A DNA stretch of 64,000 nucleotides from Candidatus Uhrbacteria bacterium. GTDB taxonomy: Bacteria; Patescibacteriota; Patescibacteriia; UBA9934; GWF2-40-263. Where the stretch lies: contig JAPLZK010000004.1 of the NCBI GenBank assembly GCA_026395055.1, positions 273,891 to 337,890 of the forward strand. The letters run 5' to 3'. Below are positions 537-42,653 of this stretch, one piece after another (position 1 is the stretch's first letter; each line of letters opens with the position of its first letter). The notes under the pieces are model-generated. The model ran no database searches. It saw only the letters and a program-made list of their open reading frames with translations, and was not told the DNA's origin. Made by a program: the position numbers and the translations under genes.

Positions 537-572
537 TGTGTCATTGCGAGCGGAGCGAAGCAATCTTCGTGT

Positions 573-860
573 ATGATGAAAACGTACTACGTCTACATCC
601 TGACAAACTGGAATAATGAAGTTTTGTATATCGGTGTAACAAATAATATTGCAAGACGCGTCTTCGAACATAAAGAGAAGCTTGTAGATGGATTTACAAA
701 AAAGTACAACGTGAACAAGTTGGTTTACGTTGAGTCTTGTGAAGATGTTCGAGATGCTATCGCACGAGAGAAACAGTTAAAAGGAGGATCACGTAAAAAG
801 AAGATTGATTTAATCGTAGCAGACAATCCTGAGTGGAACGATTTGGCGGATACGCTTTAG
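573..860 (+). CDS. GIY-YIG nuclease superfamily protein (UPF0213/YhbQ-like), 95 aa
   Basis: The N-terminal YYVYILTN...LYIGVTNN...R...H motif series is characteristic of small GIY-YIG proteins. The gene sits between xseA and xseB. Confidence 0.8.
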   Translation: MMKTYYVYILTNWNNEVLYIGVTNNIARRVFEHKEKLVDGFTKKYNVNKLVYVESCEDVRDAIAREKQLKGGSRKKKIDLIVADNPEWNDLADTL

Positions 861-904
861 ACGAAAAGATTGCTTCGTCGTCGAACTCCTCGCAATGACA
901 CATT

Positions 905-3198: not shown

Positions 3199-3232
3199 CA
3201 CCCTTCGACAAGCTCGGGGTGGTTTTTTCTTT
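3199..3232 (+). terminator. Putative terminator hairpin (CCACCC...GGGGTGG plus T-run)
   Basis: Inverted repeat followed by TTTTTTCTTT after the PP2C gene stop. Confidence 0.45.
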
Positions 3233-17820: not shown

Positions 17821-17973
17821 GTTTTGAGGGAGAGATGGTCTTGCGACCTATTCACATCACGAGAGAACATGAGGTGGATAGGTCGAGAGATTGTTTTTAG
17901 GTACGATGATTCTAGACTATTGCCTGTCATTGCGAGAAGTTCGACGACGCGGCAATCTTTTTGTCCAAGAATT

Positions 17974-28970: not shown

Positions 28971-29810
28971 ATGATTTGGATCATTCCTCTTGTATTGATC
29001 GTCGTCGGAATCATTTCCGTGGTTTCGCTTTTGATTCGCAAGATGCCTCAACTGCGTGTTATTAACGTAGACTCCATTCCAAAAGAACGAACACGTAAAA
29101 TCAAAGAGCAAATCATTTTGCAAAAGTTTCAGCGTGCGAGTGGTGATAAAATGAAAGGGGTTACTTCACTTGCGCTCATGATTGGACGTACGTTTTCTCG
29201 TACGGGACGTCGCATTGTTCAACGCTTGTATACGCTTGAGCAGTATTATCAAAAGTTGAAACGTTCTGCGTCGGAAGGACAGCATGCGTATGATGCGGAG
29301 ACGATTCATCGTCTCATTGAAGAAGCAGAAACATTGCGTCAGAAAGATGAATTGATTCCGGCAGAAAAAATGTACATAGACATCATCAGCCACAATCCAA
29401 AGAGTGTGGATGCATATGAGGGCCTTGGAAATCTTTATCTCGCGAACAATCAGTTTGATCAAGCGCGCGAAACGTTGCAGTTTAGTCTTCGATTGTCCCC
29501 AAATGATGCGAGTGTTCTTGTGTCTCTTGCTCAGCTCGAAATGAAACTCGATCAACCAAAGTCTTCGCTTGTTCATTTGAAAAAGGCGATCCAGAAGCGT
29601 CCAAAGAATCCAAAGTATTTGGATTTGTATATTGAGGTTTCTCTGAAGGCGGGCTCTCTCAAAGACGCCCAGGAGGGGATCAAGCGTCTGAAAGAAGTAA
29701 ATCCAGAGAATCAAAAGATCCAAGATTTTGAGACACGATTTTCAGAACAAAAAGCCTCATATATCACAAAATCCCATTCATCCACCGATGACGCTTCACA
29801 AACGGAATGA
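28971..29810 (+). CDS. TPR-repeat protein with N-terminal TM anchor
   Basis: TM segment IWIIPLVLIVVGIISVVSLL, then TPR-like helices (AYEGLGNLYLANNQFDQARETLQFSLRLSPND). Confidence 0.55.
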   Translation: MIWIIPLVLIVVGIISVVSLLIRKMPQLRVINVDSIPKERTRKIKEQIILQKFQRASGDKMKGVTSLALMIGRTFSRTGRRIVQRLYTLEQYYQKLKRSASEGQHAYDAETIHRLIEEAETLRQKDELIPAEKMYIDIISHNPKSVDAYEGLGNLYLANNQFDQARETLQFSLRLSPNDASVLVSLAQLEMKLDQPKSSLVHLKKAIQKRPKNPKYLDLYIEVSLKAGSLKDAQEGIKRLKEVNPENQKIQDFETRFSEQKASYITKSHSSTDDASQTE

Positions 29811-29841
29811 AGTTTGTTATGATTCCGCCCGCAAAGACAGT

Positions 29842-29917
29842 GCCGTTGTAGCTCAGTTGGTAGAGCACATCCATGGTAAGGATGAGGTCATCGGTTCAAT
29901 CCCGATCAACGGCTCCA
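29842..29917 (+). tRNA. tRNA-Thr (anticodon GGT), CCA encoded
   Basis: Manual cloverleaf: acceptor GCCGTTG/CAACGGC, D-arm GCTC...GAGC, anticodon stem CATCC/GGATG with loop ATGGTAA, T-arm ATCGG TTCAATC CCGAT, discriminator U then CCA. Confidence 0.85.
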
Positions 29918-30014
29918 TTCGACTATCGTTAGTTTGCCATGAAGATAGTCGAATGTCCTGAGCTTGTCGAAGGGCCCAATGTACCCTGACAACCATCGCT
30001 CATGGTCTGCGACC
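29918..30014 (+). repeat. tRNA-trailing structured direct repeat, copy 1 (about 97 nt; hairpins CGACTATC...GATAGTCG, GCCC...GGGC, TGGTC-tgc-GACCA)
   Basis: About 90% identical to 30120..30218. Begins immediately after the tRNA CCA. Confidence 0.7.
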
Positions 30015-30033
30015 ACACAAGCAATTCACATAT

Positions 30034-30119
30034 GGGTAGATACTCAAGCGGTCAACGAGGGGAGACTGTAAATCTCCTGGCTCACGCCTTCGAAGGTTCG
30101 AATCCTTCTCTGCCCACCA
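30034..30119 (+). tRNA. tRNA-Tyr (anticodon GTA), long variable arm, CCA encoded
   Basis: Acceptor GGGTAGA/TCTGCCC (with one G-U pair), anticodon stem GGAGA/TCTCC with loop CTGTAAA, long variable arm, T-arm AAGG TTCGAAT CCTT; 86 nt. Confidence 0.8.
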
Positions 30120-30218
30120 TTCGACTATCGCTATCTTGCTATTTAGATAGTCGAATGCCCTGAGCCTGTCGAAGGGCCCAAAGCACTCTGACAACCACCG
30201 CTCATGGTCTTCGACCAG
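30120..30218 (+). repeat. tRNA-trailing structured direct repeat, copy 2
   Basis: Same start (TTCGACTATCG) and same hairpin series as copy 1. A third partial copy (30245..30276) forms the 5' coding end of the GIY-YIG gene. Confidence 0.7.
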
Positions 30219-30232
30219 TCATCTGAGAGAAT

Positions 30233-30532
30233 ATGTTTAACAATGTCGCAATCGAATGCCCTGAGCCTGTCGATGGACAATGTTGTGTATACATTCTTGA
30301 ATGTATTGATCACTCTTATTACGTTGGATTTACAACCAACATAAAAGAACGATTGATGAGACATGAAGGAAAAGATGCCTCACTCTGGACAACGGTCCGC
30401 GCGCCAGTCGCTCTCGTCTATGTAGAAGTACACACTTCATTCATTGAGGCACGTCGTCGAGAATCTCAGTTAAAGAAATGGACAAGAGTAAAAAAAGAAC
30501 GGCTTATTTCAGGAGAATGGCAAAAGCAGTAG
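30233..30532 (+). CDS. GIY-YIG nuclease superfamily protein (second copy), 99 aa, whose N-terminal 14 codons are encoded by a copy of the tRNA-trailing repeat
   Basis: CVYILECIDHSYYVGFTTNIKERLMRHEG...RRESQLKKW GIY-YIG motifs. Only one in-frame start codon is available (30233). Confidence 0.7.
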   Translation: MFNNVAIECPEPVDGQCCVYILECIDHSYYVGFTTNIKERLMRHEGKDASLWTTVRAPVALVYVEVHTSFIEARRRESQLKKWTRVKKERLISGEWQKQ

Positions 30533-30537
30533 TTTTT

Positions 30538-30613
30538 GCCGAAGTAGCTCAGTTGGTAGAGCAACGGTTTTGTAAACCGTAGGTCACGGGTTCGAGTCCC
30601 GTCTTCGGCTCCA
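30538..30613 (+). tRNA. tRNA-Thr (anticodon TGT), CCA encoded
   Basis: Acceptor GCCGAAG/CTTCGGC, anticodon stem ACGGT/ACCGT with loop TTTGTAA, T-arm ACGGG TTCGAGT CCCGT. Confidence 0.85.
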
Positions 30614-30740
30614 GCCTTTATTTCATCAGGATTTGTCTTGTTGAGGTGAAGTGTGGATACGGGTTGTTCCCCATGAGCTTTGGGCCGTAACCTTGACACA
30701 ATCACAGATTCAGGATAACCTTCGCCCATAAATTGAATAT

Positions 30741-30896
30741 ATGTCACAAGAAAACATCATCAAACTCGAGTGCAAAGATTGCAAGCGCGCTGGCTATAAC
30801 AGCCACAAGAACAAGAAAACCTTGAAAGAGCGCTTGGAACTCAGCAAATTCTGCAAGTGGTGCAACAAGCACGTCATGCATAAAGAGACGAAATAA
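30741..30896 (+). CDS. rpmG: 50S ribosomal protein L33 (zinc-ribbon type), 51 aa
   Basis: MSQENIIKLECKDCKRAGYNSHKNKKT...KFCKWCNKHVMHKETK has the four-Cys zinc ribbon and KNK pattern typical of L33. Below the ORF-track cutoff. Confidence 0.8.
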   Translation: MSQENIIKLECKDCKRAGYNSHKNKKTLKERLELSKFCKWCNKHVMHKETK

Positions 30897-30899
30897 GAA

Positions 30900-30930
30900 C
30901 ATCCGCCCTTGTGGCGGGTGTTTTTTGTTT
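30900..30930 (+). terminator. Rho-independent terminator (CCGCCC ttgt GGCGGG TGTTTTTTGTTT)
   Basis: Hairpin plus T-run immediately after the rpmG stop. Confidence 0.7.
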
Positions 30931-40519: not shown

Positions 40520-40604
40520 TCTGTTACCCTTCGTCCAGTTCTTTACGAGTGTTCACTTCGACAAGCTCAGTATCTACGGCGCTTAGCGCCTTTGAGGGGG
40601 AATC
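40520..40604 (+). promoter_or_regulatory. Promoter (TTGACA-16-TACCCT) plus conserved 60-nt leader with GGCGC-tta-GCGCC hairpin and GAGGGGGAA SD, copy 1
   Basis: Nearly identical to 41581..41687 (about 93% over the leader), although the downstream CDSs are only distantly similar. Confidence 0.55.
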
Positions 40605-41522
40605 ATGTTGCCAGCATTGCGTCGTGTGTCTGATCGGCTTTCTACGGAGATGAATGCTTGGCTCGGGGTTCGCGAGAATCTTGGTTTCAAAGTCATCTCC
40701 TACATGAAACCAGAAACGCTTGAAGTGCATTTTGGAACAGACGCGAGTGTGACACAGGTTGCACCGCGGGGAATTTCAGAAAAGATTCTTGAAGCGATTC
40801 AGAAGCATCGAAACATTTCGACAATCTTTGTCAGAGATCCAAAGGTTTCGGAGCATGTTGCGTACGTGATCACGATCGATCTGGATCGTGGGCGCGTGGA
40901 TCGCGAACGATCTTCGTGGCAGTTGCTCGAGGATCGATGGGGATGGCGACGTGGTTTGCCGCAAAAGGAAGATGTGCCGACGTACGAAGGTCGGGATTAT
41001 CACGTAAGCCTTTTCGATTTTCTGCACGCGTTTGCCATGCTTGCCGTGGATCCGTTGCAGCAACAGTATCGCCGCGCGTTCCTTACGCGACAAGCAAGGA
41101 TCACGAAAGGATTCGGTCATAGTCAACGATTCGAATCGCTCATCTCGTGTCTTGCCTCGCAACTGGATCCGGAAACGTGTGTCTTGTTCATGCGTGCCAT
41201 GCACGAGCTTTGGAAGCATGAAGAGCACATGAATCGTTCTGTGAGTTTTGAGGAAGCACAAGAGGTTCTCTCTTCTGCGCGAATTGAAGCGCAAGAATAC
41301 GATCACAACAATCAGTTTTGGGAGATGCATGACTTTGGCCCTGAGGTAGCGGGCCGATCTTGGTTCAATGATATGGGGGATCGTATTGCCTCTGCGACTG
41401 TTTACGGAGACGGAGCGAATCCCGCATCCGGAAAAACGGAAATACGCGTTTGGGTGTACCGTTCGTTGTTCGTTCAAGAACAGGCACGTGTACTCATGAA
41501 GTGTTTTGCGTCGAAGAAGTAA
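40605..41522 (+). CDS. Hypothetical protein, tandem paralog 1 (305 aa)
   Basis: Shares the N-terminal ML..LRR.SDR..SE..AWLG motif and a central SQLDPETC.LF.RA motif with the next gene. No known family recognised. Confidence 0.55.
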   Translation: MLPALRRVSDRLSTEMNAWLGVRENLGFKVISYMKPETLEVHFGTDASVTQVAPRGISEKILEAIQKHRNISTIFVRDPKVSEHVAYVITIDLDRGRVDRERSSWQLLEDRWGWRRGLPQKEDVPTYEGRDYHVSLFDFLHAFAMLAVDPLQQQYRRAFLTRQARITKGFGHSQRFESLISCLASQLDPETCVLFMRAMHELWKHEEHMNRSVSFEEAQEVLSSARIEAQEYDHNNQFWEMHDFGPEVAGRSWFNDMGDRIASATVYGDGANPASGKTEIRVWVYRSLFVQEQARVLMKCFASKK

Positions 41523-41580: not shown

Positions 41581-41687
41581 AATATTGACAGGACAGGTAT
41601 TTCTGATACGCTGCGCGCAGTTCTTTTGCGAGTGCTCACTTCGACAGGCTCAGTATCTACGGCGCTTAGCGCCTTCGAGGAGGAATC
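41581..41687 (+). promoter_or_regulatory. Promoter plus conserved leader, copy 2
   Basis: TTGACAGGACAGGTATTTCTGATACGCT...GAGTGCTCACTTCGACAGGCTCAGTATCTACGGCGCTTAGCGCCTTCGAGGAGGAATC ATG. Confidence 0.55.
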
Positions 41688-42653
41688 ATGTTGTCATCAT
41701 TGCGTCGTATTTCTGATCGATTTGTGTCCGAGGCCTCGGCCTGGCTCGGCGCGCATGAGAGGCTCACGTTTGAAGTGGTGCGTTGTGTGAAGGGGGATGA
41801 TCTCGAAAGGTATTTTGCCAATTTTCCAGATCCGCACGTCATGCTTCGTCGCGTTTTGCCAAACGGCATCTCTCAGCAATTGATCAGGGCGGGACAGAAG
41901 GGTCGAAAGATTCTCTGTATGTTCATGATTGATTTGAAAGGTGCGATTGGTGATGAATACGTGATCACGATCGACATGGACCGCCGGCGTGTTGATCGCA
42001 AATTGTCCTCGCCTGAGTTGCTCTTGGATCCGTGGTTCAAACCGCGTGATGAGCCATGGTTTGGCGAGCTGGTCTATTCTGCGGATGTACGCCACTCGGA
42101 ACTGATAGATCTGCTCGACATACCTTTTGTGGGTCTTGGTGGTCGGCCGTTTCGTAGCCACTACGAACATCGGTTTTTCAAACGACAAAATCAGATCAGT
42201 GAATCATTTGGCTACAGTCGTCGGTTCGCTTCGCTCTTTTCGCGCCTGGCACCGCAACTGGATCCAGAAACGTGTTTACTTTTTCGCCGCGCCCTTGGAA
42301 ATCTTTGGACACACGAACAATGGATGCGTCGCAAGGTTGATCTCGTGGACGCGGAACGTGCGTTGTCCGAAGCACACCTCGATGTGACGTTTGTTTGTCT
42401 GAAAGATCATGGTTACTTTCAGGACGAAATGCTTACGCAAGTGTGTATCTGGACGGATGCCGATGAAAACGTGATTGCACAAGCGGAAGTCAGCTGCAAC
42501 GATTACGGTGTTGATCGAAAGCCGTACGCCTCCGTATATGTCTTTGGAAGTTCATTTGGTCGCGAGGACGGAATTCGTTTACTAAATTGTTTCAAGGACA
42601 AAACGGAAACCAATCTGCGCAATGAAACAAATCCTGTGTTGAAGTGGAAATAA
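41688..42653 (+). CDS. Hypothetical protein, tandem paralog 2 (321 aa)
   Basis: As above; a similar CCATC...GGATGG-TTTTTTGTTT terminator follows both genes. Confidence 0.55.
   Translation: MLSSLRRISDRFVSEASAWLGAHERLTFEVVRCVKGDDLERYFANFPDPHVMLRRVLPNGISQQLIRAGQKGRKILCMFMIDLKGAIGDEYVITIDMDRRRVDRKLSSPELLLDPWFKPRDEPWFGELVYSADVRHSELIDLLDIPFVGLGGRPFRSHYEHRFFKRQNQISESFGYSRRFASLFSRLAPQLDPETCLLFRRALGNLWTHEQWMRRKVDLVDAERALSEAHLDVTFVCLKDHGYFQDEMLTQVCIWTDADENVIAQAEVSCNDYGVDRKPYASVYVFGSSFGREDGIRLLNCFKDKTETNLRNETNPVLKWK

Follow-up and report, generated by a model that had tools for sequence, protein, structure and literature searches.

Among minimal GIY-YIG nucleases the closest known system to the one considered here is Ssn/SRM, in which SsnA, a 94-amino-acid single-domain GIY-YIG protein (cd10448), binds a hairpin repeat, NTS/SRM, in single-stranded DNA of one strand and cleaves upstream of the repeat; it acts on neither double-stranded DNA nor RNA and does not bind RNA (PMC11893778). 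As a rule a copy of the repeat stands on either side of the ssn gene, and that account makes no mention of tRNA (PMC11893778). A GIY-YIG gene set among tRNA genes is known from phages T4 and T6, whose tRNA gene cluster carries the free-standing homing endonuclease SegB (PMC2330249; PMC13096335). The UPF0213 proteins BH0048 (PDB 1zg2), EF2693 (PDB 1ywl) and E. coli YhbQ are prokaryotic, Slx1-like minimal GIY-YIG proteins (Dunin-Horkawicz et al., 2006; PMC1564403). The locus described here lies in a 64,000-nucleotide stretch of Candidatus Uhrbacteria bacterium (contig JAPLZK010000004.1), referred to below as the window, where two genes of a tRNA cluster are each followed by a folded module and a further, truncated module is fused to the 5′ end of a gene for a 99-amino-acid GIY-YIG protein. 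The module is a widespread folded element absent from Rfam and from the literature searched; its helices covary, it is associated with both tRNA ends and GIY-YIG genes, and it is present or absent at the same site in relatives. We read the repeats and the 5′ end of the gene as a cassette of a nuclease and its cognate hairpin, with solo derivatives, that would have lodged in a tRNA operon, and we put the probability of this reading at roughly one half.

The two complete repeats of the window, W1 and W2, follow tRNA-Thr(GGT) and tRNA-Tyr(GTA). They are direct repeats of 101 nucleotides which begin at the CCA of the preceding tRNA. As a preliminary description of this DNA had stated, they hold three hairpins, although they are 87% identical (84.9% over 106 aligned nucleotides) rather than about 90%. 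In the first hairpin, P1, CATTCGACTATC pairs with GATAGTCGAATG over 12 base pairs with 100% complementarity, and its first two bases are the C and A of CCA. The second is the core hairpin, G(Y)CCT-GAGCYTGTCGA-AGGGC, with a stem of 5 base pairs and the loop GAGCYTGTCGA, and the third is a small hairpin, TGGTC-NNN-GACCA, with the box CGCTCATGG just before it. Folded as RNA, W1 and W2 are more stable than their shuffles (z = -3.6 and -2.65, respectively). The 25-nucleotide core TCGAATGYCCTGAGCYTGTCGAWGG occurs three times in the window and not once in 100 shuffles, and core copies in the window number six altogether against 0.02 expected. A promoter-like site stands just before the first tRNA gene and no further plus-strand promoter-like site was found between it and rpmG, so that transcription of the GIY-YIG gene probably starts at the tRNA promoter; the tRNA spacers hold no terminator-like site, the sole one in the cluster coming after rpmG, and the cluster is thus probably a single transcript that ends there. 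The Rfam 15 covariance models returned tRNA matches alone, both in the window region (E up to 10) and in five other loci (E up to 1).

A third copy of the repeat had been proposed to supply the first 14 codons of the GIY-YIG gene. The copy within the gene is a core of 25 to 29 nucleotides (30252-30278, with an exact 25-nucleotide piece at 30252-30276), which forms codons 7 to 15 and has a weakened stem (TGGAC), and the ATG at 30233 stands upstream of it, outside the 101-nucleotide repeat. The start codon does belong to a module nonetheless, and in that sense the 5′ coding end is indeed supplied by one. Because a profile of modules from other genomes aligns across this region, the box, the start codon and the core copy can be taken together as a second, truncated module fused to the gene, made up of the box, a variable stretch which holds the start codon, ATCGAATG and the core copy. 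The claim that this is the only start codon available stands: by reading of the sequence, there is no alternative in-frame ATG, GTG or TTG from codon 1 to the first strand of the GIY-YIG domain. So does the description of the gene and its neighbour, with a clear Pfam match and a stop codon 5 nucleotides before tRNA-Thr(TGT). The order in the window, in which a short P1 hairpin, core and box are followed by a P1-less module fused to the gene, is the rarer one. Variants tend to be shared within each genome by the core of the upstream module (30157-30177 in the window) and the core within the gene (30258-30278), namely CC in the window, CT in the relative L003 and GGAC in the relative L002, which hints at gene conversion between the two.

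Table 1. Coordinates of the tRNA-linked modules, the two GIY-YIG genes and other features of the window.
Feature	Position	Strand	Remarks
Promoter-like site	29795..29823	+	TTCACA-17-TATGAT with TG; just 5′ of the tRNA cluster
tRNA-Thr(GGT)	29842..29917	+	ARAGORN; Rfam tRNA model agrees
Module copy W1 (solo)	29915..30015	+	after tRNA-Thr(GGT)
W1 P1 hairpin	29916-29927/29944-29955	+	
W1 core hairpin	29955-29975	+	loop GAGCTTGTCGA at 29960-29970
W1 box CGCTCATGG	29997-30005	+	
W1 small hairpin	30003-30015	+	TGGTC-TGC-GACCA
tRNA-Tyr(GTA)	30034..30119	+	ARAGORN; Rfam tRNA model agrees
Module copy W2	30117..30217	+	after tRNA-Tyr; orthologous copies after tRNA-Tyr in L002 and L003
W2 P1 hairpin	30118-30129/30146-30157	+	
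W2 core hairpin	30157-30177	+	
W2 box CGCTCATGG	30199-30207	+	
W2 small hairpin	30205-30217	+	
Second module, common "long" type without its own 5′ P1 arm	30196..30278	+	nhmmer, profile of 50 foreign modules, E 4e-11 (aligns 30196-30277)
GIY-YIG nuclease gene, 99 amino acids, UPF0213/Slx1-like	30233..30532	+	Pfam PF01541, E 1.2e-15, residues 17-88
tRNA-Thr(TGT)	30538..30613	+	ARAGORN; Rfam tRNA model agrees
Possible decayed module, family F2 (tentative)	30614..30700	+	by-eye comparison with L002:570-690, poor alignment; F2 intact there in L002
rpmG (L33)	30741..30925	+	intrinsic terminator 30895-30925
Second GIY-YIG gene, 95 amino acids, Ssn-like	573..860		"YIGVT...REKQLK" type
Inverted hairpins GTCATTGCGAG..GCAATC	540-565 (+), 868-899 (-)	+/-	flank gene 573..860; third copy 17926-17957
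Dispersed core hairpin	3202..3218	-	CACCC-CGAGCTTGTCGA-AGGGTG, intergenic
Dispersed core, compensated stem (ACT...AGT)	40555..40571	-	antisense in leader of gene 40605..41522
Dispersed core, compensated stem (ACT...AGT)	41638..41654	-	antisense in leader of tandem paralog 41688..42653

In two relatives (L002 and L003, with proteins 85% and 80% identical) the order tRNA-Tyr, module, core and GIY-YIG gene, tRNA-Thr(TGT), rpmG is kept. Further related clusters were sampled through homologues of L33, and thus independently of the GIY-YIG gene. One of these (L247) consists of tRNA-Thr(GGT), 43 nucleotides, tRNA-Tyr, 21 nucleotides, tRNA-Thr(TGT), 25 nucleotides and rpmG, with no module and no GIY-YIG gene, and another (L246), which has the same TIM-TPR synteny as the window, carries a solo module of type F1 between tRNA-Tyr and tRNA-Thr(TGT) and, in addition, a third module family in two copies. 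One and the same Thr-Tyr-Thr cluster therefore exists empty (L247), with a solo module (L246) and with module and GIY-YIG gene (the window, L002 and L003). The suggestion that solo copies are 5′ fragments of the gene does not hold, since both W1 and the solo copy of L246 are complete modules which end right after the small hairpin. The orthologous F1 copies are 78-83% identical, W1 and W2 85% and the GIY-YIG coding DNA 81-84%, whereas the other cluster spacers of the window and its relatives cannot be aligned; with identities near those of coding sequence amid unalignable spacers, the modules are thus under constraint and the duplication that gave W1 and W2 is not recent.

Four sequence families of the module were found, and the position of the gene varies between spacers. 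F2 differs in sequence and keeps the layout, with a hairpin that runs from the CA of CCA to an ATG, a hairpin CCCT...AGCGAAG...GGG and then GGATGGCAAGCCATC; it stands after tRNA-Thr(GGT) in L003 and after tRNA-Thr(TGT) in L002. In a further cluster (L251) a long hairpin of 106 nucleotides occurs three times (79-86% identical), each time from a CCA, such that all three tRNA genes of the cluster carry one. Between its tRNA-Thr(GGT) and tRNA-Tyr there is a GIY-YIG gene of a third subfamily (L251:1733-2017; Pfam E 2e-17) which the gene caller had missed; its ATG is formed by the last three bases of the 106-nucleotide hairpin and pairs with the CAT at the tRNA end. L246 also holds a pseudo-tRNA (2066-2176) in which the T arm, the 3′ end and the anticodon arm are those of tRNA-Thr(TGT), while its 5′ half is degenerate and its anticodon loop is interrupted by 39 inserted nucleotides; the module behind it is the one that also follows the adjacent tRNA-Thr(GGT).

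The element is by no means confined to this group. A scan of one genome per species with the exact pattern ATGYCCTGAGCYTGTCGAAGG gave at least 120 loci in nearly every bacterial phylum, and two types could be told apart among the 133 matches listed. Type B, with about 120 of them, is preceded by GCG and is dispersed, tandem or inverted, with no tRNA or GIY-YIG gene nearby. Type A, with about 13, is preceded by (G)TCGA and stands after a tRNA gene and/or before a GIY-YIG gene; the named type-A genomes among these matches belong to Patescibacteria and Verrucomicrobiota only. A metagenome scan with the type-A 25-nucleotide core pattern gave at least 131 matches on more than 120 contigs. Many of these adjoin tRNA 3′ ends: a tRNA on the same strand ends upstream, mostly 48-96 nucleotides away, in 71 of the 116 metagenome matches listed that have at least 200 nucleotides upstream, with 24 anticodon types among them, and in at least 60 of these 71 the tRNA continues as CCA|TTCGA(C/T). 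Many of the remaining matches listed follow tmRNA ends or tRNA 3′ fragments, and a few modules lie in unrelated DNA, always as C|CATTCGAC. Among the 98 matches listed with at least 250 nucleotides on both flanks, a tRNA or tmRNA gene within 200 nucleotides upstream was on the same strand in 60 and on the opposite strand in none. A GIY-YIG domain follows in 71 of the 116 metagenome matches listed with enough downstream sequence, most commonly beginning exactly at codon 10 after the core, and around 40% of the exact core copies listed lack such a gene downstream. In 5,426 E. coli genomes neither the module nor its core was detected. That the repeats might occur only here, which would have refuted the preliminary description, is ruled out, as the module recurs widely and relatives carry the association with GIY-YIG genes. 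As to a spread at tRNA 3′ ends linked to the nuclease, the association reaches far beyond this genome, solo copies are common and the three states described above exist, and movement driven by the nuclease would be the inferential part of that proposal.

The 21-nucleotide core ATGYCCTGAGCYTGTCGAAGG is identical to the letter across most bacterial phyla, usually after GCG (L006-L125, e.g., L010, L029, L066, L073, L082 and L070), and is often found in tandem (23-nucleotide units in L199, 92-nucleotide units in L089), in inverted pairs or inside heptamer and simple repeats. The LSLSKG, PEPVEG and FDKLR peptides which recur in spurious open reading frames stem from this dispersed core. In the window, antisense cores stand about 35 nucleotides before the start codons of two tandem paralogs to which no family is assigned (40605..41522 and 41688..42653). 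One solo module on the minus strand, upstream of tRNA-Phe (L014), has an insert of about 40 nucleotides in the loop of its core hairpin (GTCGAATGCCCTG[...]AGCCTGTCGAAGGG).

Some loci at tRNA-Ser genes have features of their own. In the verrucomicrobial loci L162, L205 and L212 a cassette is bounded by direct repeats of the 19-nucleotide tRNA-Ser 3′ end, starting in the T-loop. In L162 (1-750), L205 (990-1700), L084, L050 and L031 a verrucomicrobial tRNA-Ser gene is followed by strings of units, each bounded by the 19-nucleotide tRNA 3′ end (AATCCC..GCCA), and some units resemble a T-arm into which 25-80 nucleotides have been inserted after TTCGA, the insert starting with C and holding a GAGATGG..GCC box. 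Tandem units of 199 nucleotides, in which the 3′ end of tRNA-Ser is joined to the module and to about 25 codons from the start of the GIY-YIG gene, occur in L069 (290-800), L128, L160, L212 and L244, and the gene is cut at the same point in every unit. Duplicated tRNA 3′ ends were considered as a general boundary of the element and rejected: a second copy of the tRNA 3′ end lies downstream in 5 of 53 tRNA-linked modules and at none of the three tRNA genes of the window, and the feature is thus specific to a lineage.

The module comprises some 85-110 nucleotides. It usually opens with the 5′ arm of P1, continues with P2, the box, a variable stretch and the 3′ arm of P1, and closes with the core, behind which the gene follows; the core is a hairpin of 5 base pairs with the 11-nucleotide loop GAGCYTGTCGA. 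This loop was fixed by the search patterns, and it varies in L246 and in homologues detected through protein similarity. P1 is a long-range helix, in which the terminal CA of the tRNA, TTCGAC and N pair with N′ and GTCGAATG. In 102 unique modules the first eight pairs (CATTCGAC/GTCGAATG) are invariant, and positions 9-14 are paired in 74% of cases, as against 48% (standard deviation 1.9) with the 3′ arms permuted, in at least seven complementary classes. RNAalifold, applied to 14 compact modules, recovers P1 (10 base pairs), the inner hairpin P2 and the core hairpin, with compensatory changes that keep eight of the pairs. The closing pair of the core covaries in type A (C-G in 88, T-A in 12), and in type B it is T·G in 56 cases against C·A in 4, which points to a core that folds as a single strand on this particular strand. 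The small hairpin after the box has compensatory variants (TGGTC/GACCA, GGCC/GGCC and ATGGC/GCCAT). The box GCTCA is complementary to the TGAGC of the core loop, and F2 has counterparts, AGCTTCG and CGAAGCT, in the same two places, so a pairing between box and loop is suggested. Most intact genes, that of the window included, start 24-39 nucleotides before the core.

Three other interpretations of the module were tried and rejected. The ATG of the box CTCATGG does not serve as a start codon, as it is found in all three frames relative to the GIY-YIG domain, mostly with stop codons; a hammerhead-like reading of CUGA...CGAA disagrees with the consensus and has no Rfam match; and a tRNA-like fold fails for lack of a cloverleaf, even though T-loop-like TCGAA motifs are present.

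By sequence and predicted structure, the 99-amino-acid protein is a minimal single-domain GIY-YIG protein of the UPF0213/prokaryotic Slx1-like kind, nearest to BH0048 and EF2693. Its catalytic residues are intact, Y20, Y30, R40 and E77 being invariant in an alignment of 52 sequences. The AlphaFold2 model (mean pLDDT 77) has strands at residues 17-24, 29-34 and 58-67 plus helices; the fold begins at residue 17, and no secondary structure is predicted for residues 1-16, which are encoded by the module. Foldseek ranks 1zg2 and 1ywl first and then Slx1, phmmer against the PDB gives 1zg2 at 1.3e-11 and 1ywl at 1.9e-8, and none of the NCBIfam models matches. A HMMER search of 1.84 billion representative sequences found 5,692 homologues. 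In about 25 of the best 150, all of them at most 60% identical to the query, (V/I)ECPE(P/L)VEG stands exactly 2-4 residues ahead of the first strand. The nuclease gene of the complete form is in frame with the hairpin, which is thus translated into (V/I)ECPEPVEG. Other homologues read the same DNA in other frames, as LSLSKG or ALSE..ESKG, and many over-called N-termini translate the 3′ half of a tRNA and then IRL, which is CCA-TTCGAC-T.

The window contains a second GIY-YIG gene (573..860), and its layout with the flanking hairpins (540-899) is the SRM-ssn-SRM arrangement of Chenal et al., 2025 (PMC11893778). Homologues of its product are 65-75% identical over several phyla, and it shares 37% identity with the tRNA-linked protein. 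The tRNA-linked protein matches UPF0213 structures far better (1e-11) than its paralog does (0.04). The CPEPVEG-like peptide is present in 26 of 155 homologues of the tRNA-linked protein and in 0 of 120 of the other. Taken with the separate hairpins of the second gene and with L251, where a third subfamily goes with a fourth module type, this split argues that the pairing of nuclease and hairpin is specific.

The reading as a cassette draws on this specificity and on the insertion states of the cluster, and also on the association with tRNA ends and GIY-YIG genes, the covarying fold, the intact catalytic residues, the dispersed core copies and the precedent of Ssn/SRM. The 99-amino-acid protein would bind or cut the hairpin, with DNA as the substrate: by analogy with Ssn/SRM, it would recognise the hairpin on one strand of single-stranded DNA and cut nearby, and its action would move the cassette. 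Gene and module would together form a selfish or domesticated cassette which lodges in tRNA operons, is transcribed from the tRNA promoter and is rendered harmless by normal tRNA processing, whilst solo modules and dispersed core hairpins would be non-autonomous copies. Homing in the strict sense, as had been proposed, is not supported by these data, for a DNA-binding domain is lacking in the protein and cassettes bear the hairpin on a single flank.

Several observations weigh against this reading. The tRNA-linked protein is nearer to UPF0213/Slx1-like structures than to the Ssn-like paralog of the window, and to carry the activity of Ssn over to it is thus an extrapolation. The published degenerate consensus of SRM has no match in the window, in W1, in W2 or in the core copy; as a general test, this consensus was rejected, as it also misses the obvious hairpins of the second GIY-YIG gene and is specific to the NTS-like type. 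The module pattern gave no match in 2.9 million viral contigs, which rules against a phage origin, and plasmids gave the 22-nucleotide core alone, in Sphingobium replicons, with no module. No second core lies within 400 nucleotides downstream in 45 of 46 intact cassettes, so that the gene has the hairpin on a single flank and the cassette lacks a defined right end, unlike SRM-ssn-SRM and insertion sequences. The divergence of W1 and W2 is close to that of orthologous copies (85% against 81-83% identity), and there is thus no sign of recent movement in this genome. Finally, the strict co-orientation with tRNA genes and the start codon within the fold would suit a role at the RNA level equally well.

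Such a role is the main rival, although it is compatible with the cassette reading and does not exclude it; we think it rather unlikely. The module would then be a leader or processing element, in which P1 pairs the tRNA 3′ end with the first GIY-YIG codons in a polycistronic transcript and serves as a double-strand processing site (e.g., for RNase III) and/or as a brake on the translation of a potentially toxic nuclease, and solo modules between tRNAs would act as hairpins for processing or stabilisation. This would account well for a module that, among the matches listed, invariably points the same way as the tRNA and begins at C75/A76, for a gene without a separate promoter and for a start codon which falls within the fold, 24-39 nucleotides before the core, in most intact genes. 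The ATG that ends the long hairpin of L251 and pairs with the tRNA end, the presence of that hairpin on all three tRNAs of the cluster and the T·G excess at the closing pair of dispersed cores, which points to single-stranded folding of this strand, fit it too, and in the alignment both C-to-T changes seen in the box GCTCA would retain a G-U pair with the loop TGAGC. However, the short plain spacers of L247 indicate that the hairpins are dispensable for the cluster, and modules also occur outside tRNA genes and antisense. The mismatches of P1 show no excess of G·T (14, against 24 A·C), a wobble asymmetry which is uninformative as to RNA or DNA; no Rfam family matches the module; and SsnA, the sole characterised relative, does not bind RNA (PMC11893778). 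The earlier proposal of a conserved RNA module reused as a gene leader thus keeps its conserved structured unit, which may act as RNA or as DNA.

The 3′ ends of tRNA and tmRNA genes are classical integration sites, and the repeats could be att-like scars of past islands inserted by an integrase, with the GIY-YIG gene as cargo. The verrucomicrobial cassettes bounded by the 19-nucleotide tRNA-Ser 3′ end are in keeping with this. We regard it as improbable, since the downstream second tRNA 3′ end is as rare as stated above and absent from the window, the repeat starts after the tRNA rather than within it, no integrase is nearby and the module has a covarying fold of its own. It is less probable still that conservation acts on the protein, with (V/I)ECPEPVEG as a functional N-terminal peptide and solo copies as decayed 5′ ends of the gene. 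The fixed register of the peptide before the first strand in some 25 diverse homologues speaks for it, as does an in-gene copy which in the clade of the window is conserved no better than the remaining open reading frame; but the same DNA is read in other frames or not at all, many exact copies have no GIY-YIG gene behind them, solo modules run on into a conserved box and hairpin and not into decayed coding sequence, residues 1-16 are predicted to be unstructured and the stem covaries as a helix. A plain, functionless duplication of a tRNA spacer, which the occurrence of the full 101-nucleotide unit just twice in the 64-kb window, on neighbouring tRNAs, might suggest, can be dismissed, given that orthologous copies are nearly as similar as coding sequence amid unalignable spacers and that the module recurs in other phyla.

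If the cassette reading is true, it would extend the pairing of a minimal GIY-YIG protein with a cognate hairpin, known from Ssn/SRM, to the UPF0213/Slx1-like family, including E. coli YhbQ, and this structurally characterised but functionally obscure family would gain a testable substrate. It would also explain a very common annotation artefact, namely PEPVEG, LSLSKG and FDKLR peptides and over-long GIY-YIG N-termini which reach into tRNA genes. The locus connects a nuclease cassette with tRNA and tmRNA 3′ ends precisely and by way of structure, and it supplies candidates for new single-strand nucleases with sequence specificity as well as an insertion-polymorphism marker for small Patescibacteria genomes. 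A bolder proposal, which we hold only tentatively and think doubtful as it stands, is that of a new class of mobile element: hairpin-fronted minimal GIY-YIG cassettes that would insert precisely at the CCA ends of tRNA and tmRNA genes, guided by the pairing of their fold with the tRNA terminus, with non-autonomous solo modules, a 22-nucleotide core across most phyla and several GIY-YIG subfamilies, each with its own module type.

Set beside other known systems, the element has parts in common with several. It shares its target class, the 3′ ends of tRNA and tmRNA genes, with the islands of tyrosine integrases, and some verrucomicrobial loci have a duplicated tRNA 3′ end; however, there is no integrase here, the units are of 100-400 nucleotides and the junction lies after CCA rather than inside the tRNA. 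Like REP/BIME with RAYT (IS200/IS605-like), it combines a small nuclease gene with short hairpins that recur in scattered, tandem or inverted copies, and it has full and solo forms, although RAYT has an HUH/Y1 fold and chemistry instead of GIY-YIG, RAYT genes are flanked by REPs on both sides and REPs are not anchored at tRNA ends. With SegB it shares a GIY-YIG gene among tRNA genes which uses their transcription, presence or absence in relatives, as in the empty, solo and gene-bearing states of the cluster, and a link to segmental duplication of the tRNA region. SegB differs in being a protein of about 220 amino acids with a DNA-binding domain that cuts double-stranded DNA, is borne by a phage and has no structured repeat, and a 99-amino-acid single-domain protein lacks the combination of a nuclease domain with a DNA-binding domain (about 200 amino acids or more) of the Seg type. 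UPF0213 proteins give the best sequence and fold matches, with the same size and the same catalytic residues, but neither a hairpin module nor a link to tRNA has been reported for this group; in the literature searched, no paper contains the core sequence and none links UPF0213 to repeats or tRNA. With regard to Ssn/SRM, the tRNA-linked hairpin has another sequence, an 11-nucleotide loop and a place on one side of the gene only, and it is part of a larger module of about 85-110 nucleotides anchored at the CCA end of tRNA and tmRNA genes. The likeness to Ssn/SRM is nevertheless the most extensive: both proteins are small single-domain GIY-YIG proteins of about 95-100 amino acids, both genes are physically linked to a hairpin repeat of which further copies are scattered over the genome, the hairpin adjoins the start of the open reading frame and is often over-translated, and distinct protein subfamilies pair with distinct hairpins.

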